DNA of 62,201 nt, filler included. It is 12 parts of 12 records of this genome, joined end to end, with 100 filler letters (N's around TTAATTAATTAA, not from the genome) between each part and the next. Parts side by side here need not be neighbours in the genome. Positions count along the whole stretch, not along the records: positions 11,497 to 16,057 come from SRR15195285_4359; 11 more parts are not named here. One strand, written 5' to 3'. Positions 13,271 through 17,879 of the stretch are shown one piece after another; position 1 is the stretch's first letter; each line of letters begins with the position of its first letter. A program made the position numbers and the translations under genes. Under the pieces are notes generated by a model that saw nothing but the letters and a program-made list of their open reading frames with translations, did no database searches and was not told the origin of the DNA.

Positions 13271-15825
13271 TCATGTCGTTGCAGCTTGAGCCGGGCTGAT
13301 CACGTGAAACAGACAACAGTCCTCACTCCCGGGGCCGTCTTGTTCCGCACCGAGCAGGCTGTACTCATAGTATCGCAGTTCGCCCACCAATGGTAGCTCC
13401 CGCGGTAGCTCAGGATATTCCAATTCGCTAACCTGTTGCTCTTCCACAACGGTTTTCTGCTTCACTGGGACTACTGCGCCGACCCTTCGCCGGACGACCT
13501 TTTGCTCTGCATCCTTCGGCAAATCAATCGAACCTTTCGACCCTGTGCTATTCTTCCAGCGATCTGTCGGACGAAGGGAACGAACCTCATCAGCATATCA
13601 CAGATAGCACCAAGAACAATGGACGCATAAATCACTCACCAGGTACAGTTTCTTGCGCAAGCAGTTCCCTTTGCTCGGGCGTCAGCTTGGCCCTTGCCTT
13701 AGCGGACTTATAGCGACCGCGCGGACGCTGCACTTTAGGCATCTCCACGTACAAACCACTAGGGCAGACACCGAGTGTAAGCGGGCGCTTGGGTAGCTTA
13801 GGCGCTTGAGCCTGCTCCTCATTTTCCTTATGTTGCTGCGATGACATCGACACACAGCATATAGAGATTCACATTGTGAAGCAGAGCATCATGCGCCAAG
13901 CTGTTAGCCTTTCGAAGAGGCAGGAGCCACGTGTACGCTGCAGCTGTAAAATGGTGAAGGCAACGCATCTGAAATACCTCTAAGCGGTAGTGGTAGCGAA
14001 GAATCGTGGCTGCTTCCATCCAGTCTAACATGCGAGTCTTCGATGCCTGAAGGCACTTTTGCACGTCCATCGGGAATGCCTTGTAGTCGACCTCCCCTGC
14101 AGCTATTACAGCAGCGACCTTCAAGTTCAGCTCCCCCGCATGTGCTTTTGCTGCATCTGCTTTAAGTAAGGCCTGCTGAGCTGCCTCTGTGGCAGCCCTG
14201 TTCTCTTTGTCGTCTTTTGCGTCACGAACAGCTTGAACAGCCTCCGCCTGTAATAGCTCTGCGACGGAAGCAGCAGCAGCTGCAGCTGCATCGCTGCCCT
14301 CCCACGCAGGGAAGTCAGCAGCGCCTGGGATCGTCGCCCACCATCGCTGCGAATCCAGCTCGACTGTCTCCCCACTTGCTCCAATACAGCGAGCAGAAAT
14401 CTCGTCTGCTGTGAGAAGGCATTCATCAAGCATGGCGACTATCTTCGCTGCCTGCAGGTCCGGCCCAATGAGAACAATCTCCTGTCGCCGATCGCCTCGC
14501 CAAGACTGGCAACTAGACTCACAGGCTGCCTCGCTGCTGCTCGAGTCACTGGAAGGCTGCGGCTTATATCCAGGCGCCGTACTGAGCCAAGATCCACCGT
14601 CACAGAAGCGAAACAGCGTTCCAGCCTGTTGCCACTCACCGATACGATCAGACCGCCCCGCGAGCCAGAACACTCCCTTTGACCGCACCAGTCCCAGTTC
14701 CATGAGAGCTTGCGCGGCGGTGGTAGCGCTCATGTCTAGAATGGCAGCACTGTCTGTAGCTCCAAGAAGAAGCTGTTTTAGGCGTCCTCCGTGAAATGGA
14801 CGCGTTCGGGTGTACATCTGGTGCCGAATGTTGAGGGAAGAAGCCTTGGACACAAACGTCCCAGAGATCAACTTTTCCCACCCCGGCTGCTCCTCTGCGG
14901 TGTCCCAGTCAAACCGGCCGGTACAAAGCACGTCACTCGGGCAGATTTTGCCCCAATCCGTTGTCAATATGGACGCGTGCGGATTCAGCCCTTCGATTAT
15001 CTTGCGTGTCTTTGCCAGCGACTCAACGCTGACCGACGACGCCTTGTTGAGCACAATCACATTCGCGAATTCGATCTGCTCTGTCAGGAGCTGCGATACG
15101 TGGGCACCCACCAACTTCGCATCGGCTGCTTCCGCACGAAGGTCCTTTCGCTCGAGCACTTGCTCACACGAAAAGAAATCGCGCTCAAAATTGGGTGCAT
15201 CGACCACGGTGACCAGCGTGTCGAGTGCCACGATATCGTCCAGCACCCTGCCACGACCCAAGTCAAACGCAGAGATGCCTTCGGCGATCGGCAACGGCTC
15301 GGCAGCTCCCGAGCCCTCGATCAACATGGCATCAAATCGGTCTGCCTTCGCGAGATCCCGAATTTGAGAAAGTAGGTCGTCCTTCAGTGTGCAGCACATG
15401 CAACCGTTGCTTAGTTCAACCAACTCTTCTGACCGTCCCACGTCCAGCCCGACCCTAGCAGCAGTCTTGGCGTCGATGTTGACTGCACCAATATCGTTCA
15501 CAATCAACGCCACCCTCAGCCCAAGCCTGTTCTTGAGCACTCTCTGGAGGACTGTCGTCTTGCCAGCTCCGAGAAATCCTGAAAGCAGCGTGATCGGCAA
15601 CTTCTTGTCTGCGCGTCGGCCACGAATCTCTAGGTGGTCTAGCGCACGGTAGCATGCTCGGCCGGCATCTGCGCACGACCTGCACGGATCGCCACCCTCG
15701 CAGTCGACCTCGCAAGCGGTGCAACGCACACAGGGCCCTGCTGTATGCGCAGATGGCGCTGCACTTGCCTCGAGGGGGCCCATGCTGCAAGGGCCCTCCC
15801 TTGTGCGGTCCTCGCGGACGCTCAT
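13271..15825 (-). CDS. COG0523/CobW (ZNG1-like) G3E GTPase metallochaperone with N-terminal Zn2Cys6-pattern domain; predicted 3 exons (introns 13836..13977, 13564..13639)
   Basis: SGFLGAGKTT, VNDIGAVNID, SNGCMCC (CxCC), EQIEFANVIVLNK, RPFH, RSKGVFWLA, GDRRQEIVLIG. Two downstream exons join in frame by GT-AG introns. Start is 15825 or 15783. Confidence 0.9.
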
Positions 15826-16057
15826 CCCCCATGCATGGCGCTGCAACGCGTAGGATTCCTAGCATTTTTTTGCGTGTTTTCGCACTCCTGAGCGTTTGTA
15901 TGTAGTTTTGTATGTGTAGAAATACTGTACTAGTACGAGTTTTACCTGTGCATGCAAGTACTAGTACATCGGTACCGGTAAAACTTCATTGAATGTCTCA
16001 AGGCTCCGAACACAAAGAAACAGATCTCTGTATATATACCTAATATTAGGGGGGGGG

Positions 16058-16157
16058 NNNNNNNNNNNNNNNNNNNNNNNNNNNNNNNNNNNNNNNNNNN
16101 NTTAATTAATTAANNNNNNNNNNNNNNNNNNNNNNNNNNNNNNNNNNNNNNNNNNNN
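16058..16157. other. Artificial contig spacer
   Basis: N44-TTAATTAATTAA-N44. Confidence 0.99.
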
Positions 16158-17879
16158 AGCAGCAGCAGCAGCAGCAGCAGCAGCCGTTGAGTGACTTGAG
16201 TGCACAGCTTCTTGATTTTGTGGACCATCTGAGCCGGTGTGGCATGCTGGCGATGGAACTCTTCGATCGACTAACCAGCGGGGACCCTGACTCCAACCTT
16301 ACTGGTTCTGGGGCTATCGCTGGTCGCGGACAAGAGGCAGGGTTGACGTTGCGTCGTCCAGCGGAGAATCAGCTGTGCTTGGACAAATGTGTGCCGTGTG
16401 AGATGGCCACAGCCGCTCTGCTTGGCAAGATGGAGGCGACCGGCATTCTCGTCGATGTTGAATATTTGCAGCGCGCCATCCCGTCCATCAAGCAGCAGCT
16501 TTACGAACTGGAAGCAGAGGCTCATTCTCTGGCAGGCCATCCGTTCCTTCTAACCTCACCGCAGCAGATCTCTACGGTAATTTATGACGAGCTGAACCTC
16601 AAGCCACGCGATCAGCCTTCGCAGGCTAAACAAGCAGCTGGTTCGACCGTCACCAAAACATCAGAGGCCATTCTGGTCGAGCTGCAGAGTCAGCACCCGT
16701 TGCCTGCCATCATTCTGCAGCACAGGTCCATCAATAAGCTGCTCTCGACATATATAGACCCTTTCATACAGAAGGCGACCTCGTCACAAGATGGCCGGTT
16801 GCGCTCCACCTTTCTGCAGCTCAATACAGTCACAGGGCGGCTGGCATCCAAAAACCCGAATCTGCAGAATCTACCGAGGGAATCAACCACGCTGAGTGGC
16901 AGTGGCGATGGCAATGACGGGGGTGTTGCGAGCAGCATCAATATCAGACGCGCACTAAAGGCTGCACCGGGCTGCGTGTTCGTGGCCTCGGATTTCTGCC
17001 AGCTGGAGGTGCGGATTCTGGCGCACTTCTGTGAGGATGACAAACTGCAGCGTTTCCTATGCGACGGGGGCGACCCTTTCACCTCGTTGGCAAGCGATTG
17101 GCTTTCCATTCCGACGCAGGCTGTAACTGAAACAGAGCGAGCCAAAGCCAAGCAGTGCGTTTATGGTGAGCTCACCGTGACCGCAAGCAGCAGAGGGGGA
17201 GTTTGCTCGCTGAATGCGTTCGTCGTGTCGTGGCTGCATGTCTCAGGGATTGTGTACGGAATGGGCCCTGGTCTACTTGCTCAGAAGCTTGGTTTGACTC
17301 TGCGCGATGCCTCGACTCTCATGCGCTCGTTCTCGTCCAGGTATCCTCTCATCAAGCGCTGGGAGCATCACGTGAGACAACCCACATTCCGACACACAGT
17401 AAGCATTCATCTAAAGTCGGCTGACTTACACGGATTCGCTGCACGCTTCTACTGGTCGTGTGTCCATGCAGACCCTGAGTTGTGCCCGAGCATGCTCGGC
17501 ATCGCATACCCTTTTCAGGAGAAGGCGGCACCTCCCCGATTTACACTCGAAAATTGGAGCCAAGAAAGCAGCGGCTGAAAGGCAGGCTATCAACTCGGTG
17601 ATCCAAGGCACTGCGAGTGACATCATGAAGCAAGCAATGATGAGGGCAGAGGAGCGCCTCGCGCAGCTGCAGCTAAGTGGTCCTTCTGCGACACGCGCTG
17701 GCGGTGCTATCTGCCGTTGCGTCTTGCAGGTGCACGATGAGCTCATCTACGAAGTGTCGCAGGAGTGGGCTACTGATGTGGGCAGCGAGGTGACCGCGGC
17801 GATGGAAGAATGTGTAGAGCTTTCGGTGCCGTTGAGGGTGTCGACGAAGATCGGCCCAACTCTCGGCGATCTTCGCTAG
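16158..17879 (+). CDS. POLQ: Family A DNA polymerase domain, Pol theta-like, 5'-truncated; introns 17166..17246 and 17372..17471
   Basis: TGRLASKNPNLQNLP, motif A SDFCQLEVRILAH, spliced motif B AKQCVYGIVYGMG, AERQAINSVIQGTASDIMK, motif C LQVHDELIYEV. Motif B looks closer to Pol theta than Pol nu. Confidence 0.85.

Follow-up and report, generated by a model that had tools for sequence, protein, structure and literature searches.

A diverged Zn2Cys6-type cysteine cluster at the N-terminus of a ZigA-like COG0523 GTPase, with a possible role in metal handling

What does a cysteine pattern of the Gal4 type do in front of a zinc chaperone? The question is raised by a gene on record SRR15195285_4359, one part of the window analysed here (the whole stretch of 62,201 bases). 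The gene codes for a 665-residue protein that joins an N-terminal six-cysteine cluster, spaced as in Zn2Cys6 domains, to a GTPase of the COG0523 family. A sequence-only reading of the locus had proposed that the cluster was repurposed from DNA binding to act as a zinc sensor or reservoir. The anatomy of the protein and the homology of its N-terminus, as described below, can be stated with high confidence. The statement as a whole, namely that a ZigA-like COG0523 GTPase carries a diverged Zn2Cys6 N-terminus that serves metal handling, stands at about even chances.

The coding sequence (665 aa plus stop) occupies 13828..15825 on the minus strand, as do all features of the gene given below. Residues 32-58, encoded at 15652..15732, form an acidic Zn2Cys6-type six-cysteine cluster, identified by its pattern, by alignment, by profiles and by its predicted fold. 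The segment CVRCTACEVDCEGGDPCRSCADAGRAC (15732..15652) reads exactly C-x2-C-x6-C-x5-C-x2-C-x6-C, as had been claimed. With the ATG at 15825 as residue 1, the cysteines fall at 32, 35, 42, 48, 51 and 58, and an extra seventh one lies at 38. Zn2Cys6 domains follow the spacing consensus C-x2-C-x6-C-x5-12-C-x2-C-x6-8-C. A regular expression for this domain, strict or loose, matched this segment alone across all six frames of the window and nothing in 200 residue shuffles of these frames; the pattern is not a product of chance. From the last cysteine of the cluster to the Walker A motif GFLGAGKT (residues 83-90, 15556-15579), 24 residues were counted instead of the approximately 20 first given.

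The cluster is conserved. In an alignment of the window protein with nine relatives (alignment A1; 39-94% identity to the window in the cluster segment), the six cysteines, one arginine, the proline before the fourth cysteine (P23) and the glycine of the last loop (G31) are invariant in 10/10 sequences, and the six cysteines are kept in nine of the ten closest database proteins. The seventh cysteine was also seen correctly by the sequence-only reading, but it is not a family feature: it is found in five of the ten aligned sequences and is replaced by serine in the 95% identical P0002. When a profile of the N-terminus was searched against a collection of 5.8 billion proteins, 15 protein clusters were retrieved at E<=0.001, all of which keep the six cysteines and fit, like the window copy, the consensus spacing. 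The precomputed annotation lists cobW in 14 of them, the fifteenth being a 119-residue fragment. The fusion thus recurs elsewhere, in proteins from several sources, and the conservation of the cysteine spacing in relatives is borne out. A region-restricted word search had retrieved four proteins and was superseded by these profile searches; a protein-atlas search with residues 22-72 returned no usable match.

On either side of the cluster, conservation differs. The leader that precedes it (residues 1-31, 15733..15825) is variable and not conserved across relatives, two of which (P0005 and P0010) start three residues ahead of the first cysteine; it is probably disordered, pLDDT being below 50 at residues 1-25 of the AlphaFold model. 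The linker that follows, YRALDHLEIRGRRADKKL (residues 59-76, 15598..15651), connects the cluster with strand beta-1 of the GTPase, which begins at residue 76 in the model, and contains a short predicted helix at 62-65. Its positions L38, L41, R44 and R47 (A1 numbering) are invariant, and the segment is conserved also in relatives without the cluster. In one family member, P0291, four more cysteines (CAICVAGGTPCSHC) stand immediately before the six-cysteine cluster, which suggests that the thiolate-rich N-terminus may have grown further in some lineages.

Is this N-terminus a homologue of the Gal4-type domain or a mere resemblance in spacing? The independent tests of homology are those against Pfam and the Protein Data Bank (PDB). 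Scanned singly, eight of the ten family members are matched by the Pfam family Zn_clus, which is the top-scoring family in each of these eight; P0010 (22.3 bits) and P0011 (27.8 bits) exceed its 21-bit cut-off and the six others score 13.3-19.0. The A1 profile searched against PDB sequences gave 15 matches at E<=10, of which 12 are Zn2Cys6 proteins: PUT3 (3.3e-4 and 5.7e-4), CYP1/HAP1 (0.007-0.009), then Cep3, PPR1, Pho7 and LEU3. Two cytochromes c and one ferredoxin make up the rest. In an exhaustive search of 1.84 billion representatives, the same profile found 107 proteins at E<=0.001, six from the fusion family and 101 others of the canonical CxRCRxxKxKCDxxxPxCxxC type; 10/10 of those sampled match Zn_clus well above the cut-off. 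Conversely, the window copy scored 26.8 bits against a profile of the canonical domains. When its cysteines were held fixed and the other residues shuffled, the mean score was 2.3 bits and the maximum 19.4, none of 300 shuffles reaching the real score, and the outcome was the same for all ten family members.

The predicted structure agrees with the profiles. In the full-length AlphaFold model, helices 33-38 and 49-53 directly follow C32 and C48 (pLDDT 82-84). A model of the isolated domain (pLDDT 72) gave 25 Foldseek matches at E<=10, the best 19 of which are all Zn2Cys6 DNA-binding domains. PUT3 was matched with probability 0.99. Superposed on PPR1, PUT3 and GAL4 with about 30 columns each, the model showed root-mean-square deviations of 1.2-1.7 A, the value for PPR1 (29 columns) being 1.2 A.

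Several observations weigh on the other side. Zn_clus does not match the window copy at E<=10, and the only Pfam family reported for the window N-terminus is Fer4_6, with an E-value of 2.6. Eight of the ten family members stay under the curated Zn_clus cut-off. The profile of canonical domains was built from matches picked by the family's own profile and so leans towards the family. The Foldseek E-values for this small domain are all above 0.001, and AlphaFold may yield the fold from the cysteine spacing alone. Nevertheless, the profile, PDB, fold and reciprocal matches converge, and we conclude that the N-terminus is homologous to the Gal4-type cluster, though diverged from it: the cysteine pattern first noticed is a real and conserved relative of the Zn2Cys6 domain. 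Of the two Pfam families anticipated for the protein, cobW was found, and Zn_clus was missed in the window copy even though it matches eight of ten relatives, two of them above the cut-off.

Some of the canonical matches are themselves unusual. Eleven proteins (P0124, P0129, P0130, P0131, P0137, P0140, P0173, P0176, P0199, P0207 and P0223) contain five to six tandem Zn2Cys6 patterns, with up to 11% cysteine, whereas typical fungal factors have one cluster, at the N-terminus; some of their loops are not basic.

The divergence concerns the features that serve DNA binding. In Gal4-type domains, the loop between the second and third cysteines holds the lysines that contact DNA. Here this loop reads TACEVD, with a net charge of -2, and its acidity, as pointed out from the window copy, extends to the whole family: the loop is net negative (-1 to -2) in 10/10 members, for a charge of the whole domain of -1 to -7. 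The 243 canonical domains of the 101 other proteins have a mean charge of +2.7 in the loop and +3.9 in the domain, and a loop charge of zero or less is found in 19 of them. After the cluster, no linker and coiled-coil dimerisation element was found in the AlphaFold model, the four-residue helix 62-65 being the only one before beta-1. Both the basic DNA-contacting loop and the dimerisation element are lost. Canonical DNA binding is unlikely because of the acidic loop in all ten members and the lack of a coiled coil.

The GTPase part retains what is expected of a COG0523 chaperone. A cobW G-domain covers residues 77-287 (14965..15597; Pfam cobW, 147 bits, E 5.7e-43, cut-off 20.7) and contains the Walker A motif and the metal-binding CxCC motif, expected between switch I and Walker B and here CMCC (residues 142-145, 15391-15402). 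The CobW_C domain covers residues 337-470 (14416..14817; 52 bits, cut-off 22) and includes the RxKG motif as RSKG (residues 381-384, 14674-14685), a motif described as the arginine finger of the C-terminal domain in the part consulted of a 2026 preprint (PMC13001444). An alignment of 39 sequences shows no variation at C142, C144, C145, R381, K383 or G384. Among NCBIfam models, ZigA (NF038288) scores highest, with 371.8 bits over residues 76-478. This lies below the equivalog cut-off of 600, and by these scores the protein resembles ZigA without being its equivalog. In structure, the AlphaFold model of the whole protein (mean pLDDT 71) comes closest to YjiA (E 1.3e-14). Because the cobW, CobW_C and ZigA models match and the CxCC and RxKG motifs are invariant, the chaperone machinery looks intact, and the proposed fusion of the cluster to a CxCC COG0523 GTPase in one open reading frame (ORF) is upheld.

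Inside CobW_C, an insert carries a Ser/Cys patch, CESSC (residues 435-439, 14509-14523), which probably represents a further metal-binding loop with cysteine instead of histidine. In a comparison that took in P0004, P0005, P0010, P0014, P0015 and P0019, relatives have equivalent patches in this insert (CSCENTCVSGC in P0004, CDCSTC in P0005 and CDCETC in P0010), and more distant ones have HGHGH-type histidine-rich loops elsewhere in their C-terminal regions.

Is the cluster translated together with the GTPase? The stop-to-stop ORF 13828..15858 (minus), which contains the reading GPCVRCTACEVDCEGGDPCRSCADAGRACYRALDHLEIRGRRADKKLPITLLSGFLGAGKTT, is uninterrupted, and contigs aligned to it show no joints, in agreement with the earlier placement of the cluster in the same exon as the GTPase. 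Its in-frame methionine codons are at residue 1 (15825), at residue 15 (15783) and then at residue 143, inside the CxCC motif and past the P-loop. As there are none between the cluster and the P-loop, any product containing the P-loop includes the cluster, and the two are unavoidably translated together, barring a non-ATG start or a splice. P0002 and P0003 (80% identical) start at a place equivalent to the window ATG. EukProt-sourced proteins contain the cluster segment, and one of them, P0229, is letter for letter the window protein beginning at the second ATG. Metatranscriptome contigs from two runs of two studies span the motif without joints (X16, 15593-15814; X17, 15691-15814, continuing upstream of 15814). 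These contigs are approximately 95% identical to the window and come from a related strain, and RNA libraries may contain DNA, which counts against taking them as transcripts of this gene; as contigs, they lend weak support to transcription of the motif region. They leave gaps, including 13700-14007 and the Walker A codons, which carry no weight either way.

How could a Zn2Cys6 cluster serve such a GTPase? In the mechanism proposed here, the six thiolates would bind two Zn(II) as a small cluster, at a predicted distance of about 18 residues from the G-domain, and would serve metal handling rather than DNA binding. The cluster would be a second thiolate-rich zinc site that passes zinc to the CxCC site or receives it from there, and its occupancy may influence GTP hydrolysis. 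Such a role as metal relay or sensor, feeding or reading the CxCC site, is favoured because of the precedent of the nickel chaperone HypB; drawn from analogy, it is tentative and falls just short of even chances. With two zinc ions per protein, the cluster would store little. Of the functions suggested by the sequence-only reading, a sensor would fit better than a reservoir, as would a relay site or a docking module. Two points count against a zinc-exchanging cluster. The cluster is structural in the known Zn2Cys6 proteins, and an exchange of its zinc is presumed here. A Pfam scan of five neighbouring ORFs also returned nothing zinc-related: the matches were sub-threshold C2 and Pyr_redox_2 and a DNA_pol_A, and two ORFs had none. 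A prediction of the complex between residues 70-480, two zinc ions and the N-terminal domain scored 0.00 and says nothing either way. A bolder and doubtful version of the proposal would make this the first Zn2Cys6 domain with a demonstrated function other than DNA binding. In this version, a metallothionein-like two-zinc thiolate cluster would be part of the metallochaperone itself, its occupancy would report zinc supply and gate GTP-driven zinc delivery, and the three-cysteine half-motif of a sister clade (see below) would complete the cluster only on dimerisation.

Four other explanations have to be weighed, two of which deny the premise. The segment might lie outside the mature protein if the start is misplaced, an intron was overlooked or the assembly is faulty. 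An assembly gap 213 bases upstream of the ATG, a start called past the cluster in P0008 and RNA support that consists of contigs, not of read-level 5' ends, would speak for this. The missing methionine between cluster and P-loop, the same contiguous ORF in all 15 independent protein clusters from several sources, the RNA-library contigs of two studies that cross the motif without joints and the EukProt-sourced proteins that include the segment go the other way; the explanation is already largely refuted and has become exceedingly improbable. The N-terminus might also be a convergent, lineage-specific metal-binding tail not derived from Zn2Cys6 domains, for instance one that binds an Fe-S cluster through CX2CX2CX3C with the seventh cysteine. 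The first four cysteines of the window copy do stand in a ferredoxin-like spacing, the window copy fails Zn_clus, weak Fer4-type matches appear in the family (E 0.08-2.6), and the sister clade has just three cysteines (CxxC-x6-11-C) at the same place. However, every Fer4 match is far under its cut-off and the seventh cysteine is absent from five of ten sequences, including the 95% identical strain. The non-cysteine residues carry the signal, as the cysteine-fixed shuffles show, the hallmark proline and glycine are invariant and two relatives exceed the curated Pfam cut-off. Convergence is therefore quite improbable.

The two remaining explanations accept the homology and differ about the function. 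The main rival to a relay or sensor is a docking module, that is, a zinc-stabilised structural domain for a client or partner whose own zinc is not exchanged. This agrees with the structural zinc clusters of known proteins, and an acidic surface suits a basic partner. There are parallels in the portions seen of two reports: the N-terminal extension of ZNG1 binds the zinc finger of MAP1 (PMC10642216), and the nuclear protein CBP1 of Chlamydomonas, which combines CobW/CobW_C with a WW domain, binds CCM1 (10.1101/2025.07.09.663896). On the other hand, no partner is known, the domain adjoins a metal-handling G-domain, and the extra Cys/His patches of the family, placed where relatives have metal-binding loops, point to metal handling. 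Docking is accordingly an unlikely function, though one with a real claim to attention. Last, the protein could be a zinc-responsive regulator in which the cluster binds DNA while the GTPase senses metal. Its homologues do bind DNA, and a nuclear regulator with a CobW domain exists in a green alga according to the part seen of the same report (10.1101/2025.07.09.663896). Yet the first loop and the domain as a whole are negative in the family, a loop charge of zero or less is a minority state among canonical domains (19/243), and the linker and coiled coil are missing after the cluster, all of which makes a DNA-binding regulator very improbable. A cluster that relays or senses metal for the CxCC site is the reading preferred here.

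In which organisms is the fusion found? The runs that contain the stretch are marine, seawater or aquatic metagenomes, save one coded organism. Cluster mates of three relatives bear EukProt labels naming Picozoa, and the organism is probably a picozoan, an assignment that comes from relatives and is not proof for the window. A whole-protein atlas search placed nearest a cluster that is mostly Chlorophyta and was not used for taxonomy.

A quick maximum-likelihood tree was built from the G and C-terminal domains, leaving out the N-termini. It groups the eukaryote-type sequences in one clade (SH-aLRT 98), which divides into two. The clade of the window comprises nine six-cysteine members and P0008, whose called start lies past the cluster. 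Within the second clade, the six-cysteine P0011 branches first, and the others have a three-cysteine motif at the same place or no cysteine. This motif aligns with the second half of the six-cysteine cluster (P0014, P0015 and P0019-P0023) and varies in spacing (CxxC-x3-13-C). Several members of the second clade add ankyrin repeats and histidine-rich loops. Provided that the root is on the bacterial side, the six-cysteine state would most simply be ancestral to the eukaryotic group and later halved or lost. The segment that precedes the three-cysteine motif loosely resembles an HMG box by eye; the precomputed Pfam lists include no HMG domain.

Beyond CobW_C, the protein has a helical C-terminal extension (residues 471-665, 13831..14415), seen in the eukaryote-type clade and identified by AlphaFold helices and a conserved motif; no family matched residues 471-665. 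The motif WWATIPGAADFPAWEGS (WW...FPAWEGS, residues 495-511, 14293-14343) is conserved in relatives, those of the second clade having FPxFExDCC at its place. Helices are predicted at 512-538 and 543-577, and the mean pLDDT of ten-residue blocks is 88-95 over residues 501-560.

The end of the gene differs between strains. The main frame of the window ends with CVDVIAAT and a stop at 13828-13830, and a tail ORF of 71 codons, identical to P0227, follows in another frame (13632..13847, minus). In a sister strain (P0232 and P0236, 732 aa, ...CVDGSQQQKENEE...ETVPGE), the tail is read in frame as the C-terminus. The strain of P0002 has the same split as the window, with the tail separate (P0231) on one 5,246-base contig together with P0002. 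Judged from these sequences, the split seems to reflect a genuine difference of one base in length between strains and not an assembly error. No RNA contig covers the tail-split region.

Upstream of the gene and outside its coding sequence, the assembly gap at 16039-16158 consists of two N runs around a linker (TTAATTAATTAA) and separates the cluster-GTPase gene from a divergently oriented gene for a family-A DNA polymerase. The latter, with its ORF seen from 16160 onwards (DNA_pol_A, E 4.5e-62), apparently contains short introns and has lost its 5' end in the gap. A 176-codon ORF in another frame (minus, 15455-15985) overlaps the gene start, and short upstream ATGs precede the main ATG. Both are probably spurious in this GC-rich sequence and bear on the choice of the start site.

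The literature searched contains no paper describing a fusion of COG0523 with Zn2Cys6. In the portions consulted of two COG0523 surveys (PMC2770081 and PMC10642216) the fusion goes unmentioned, while their supplementary networks and tables might list the subgroup. What appears new is that the N-terminal metal module of a COG0523 chaperone would be an unexpected, repurposed Zn2Cys6 domain. Routine annotation misses this architecture because the precomputed Pfam entries of the 15 family protein clusters, which list cobW and CobW_C, never list Zn_clus. A presumed two-zinc thiolate domain permanently tethered to the G-domain offers a direct experimental handle on how COG0523 chaperones come by their zinc and what governs its handover to clients; if the reading of a gated two-zinc cluster were true, the protein would be a self-contained system for metal acquisition and release. 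The reuse of a supposedly fungal DNA-binding module in a lineage of marine protists, where other residues stand in place of those that contact DNA, is also relevant to where the fold arose and how versatile it is.

Several known systems can be compared with this protein. It has cobW, CobW_C, Walker A, CxCC and RxKG in common with the bacterial COG0523 proteins ZigA, YjiA, YeiR and ZagA, to which it adds the Zn2Cys6 N-terminus and the C-terminal extension of approximately 190 residues; the bacterial relatives in the alignment have just 11-26 residues ahead of Walker A. With Gal4, Ppr1, Put3, Hap1, Leu3, Pho7 and Cep3 (PF00172), it shares the six-cysteine spacing, the proline before the fourth cysteine, the last-loop glycine and a pair of short helices that each begin at a CxxC, as well as reciprocal profile and predicted-fold matches. 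In contrast with these proteins, whose first loop is basic, the loop of the window family is acidic or neutral, no linker and coiled coil follow, the domain is joined to a GTPase and not to the body of a transcription factor, and most copies fall below the Pfam cut-off. The eukaryotic COG0523 protein ZNG1 likewise has a CxCC loop and an N-terminal extension that matters for its function; in the part of the report that was consulted, it is a zinc transferase for methionine aminopeptidase 1 whose unstructured extension binds the zinc finger of the client (PMC10642216). Here the extension itself would be a zinc-cluster domain, and the nearest model is ZigA.

The closest functional parallel drawn here is HypB, whose metal site stands at its extreme N-terminus, just as the cluster begins at residue 4 in P0005 and P0010. 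Both are G3E metallochaperone GTPases with an N-terminal cysteine-rich site tethered to a G-domain that has a lower-affinity site. The N-terminal extension of HypB, as far as the source was seen, carries a nickel site of high affinity and makes transient contact with the G-domain close to where metal and nucleotide bind (PMC12284835). The CxxCGC motif of HypB is not present at the N-terminus, where the motif differs, and the two proteins belong to different G3E subfamilies and handle different metals, so that the likeness is one of analogy, not homology. HypB binds one nickel through three cysteines of a disordered extension, whereas a folded six-cysteine domain is predicted in front of the GTPase described here.

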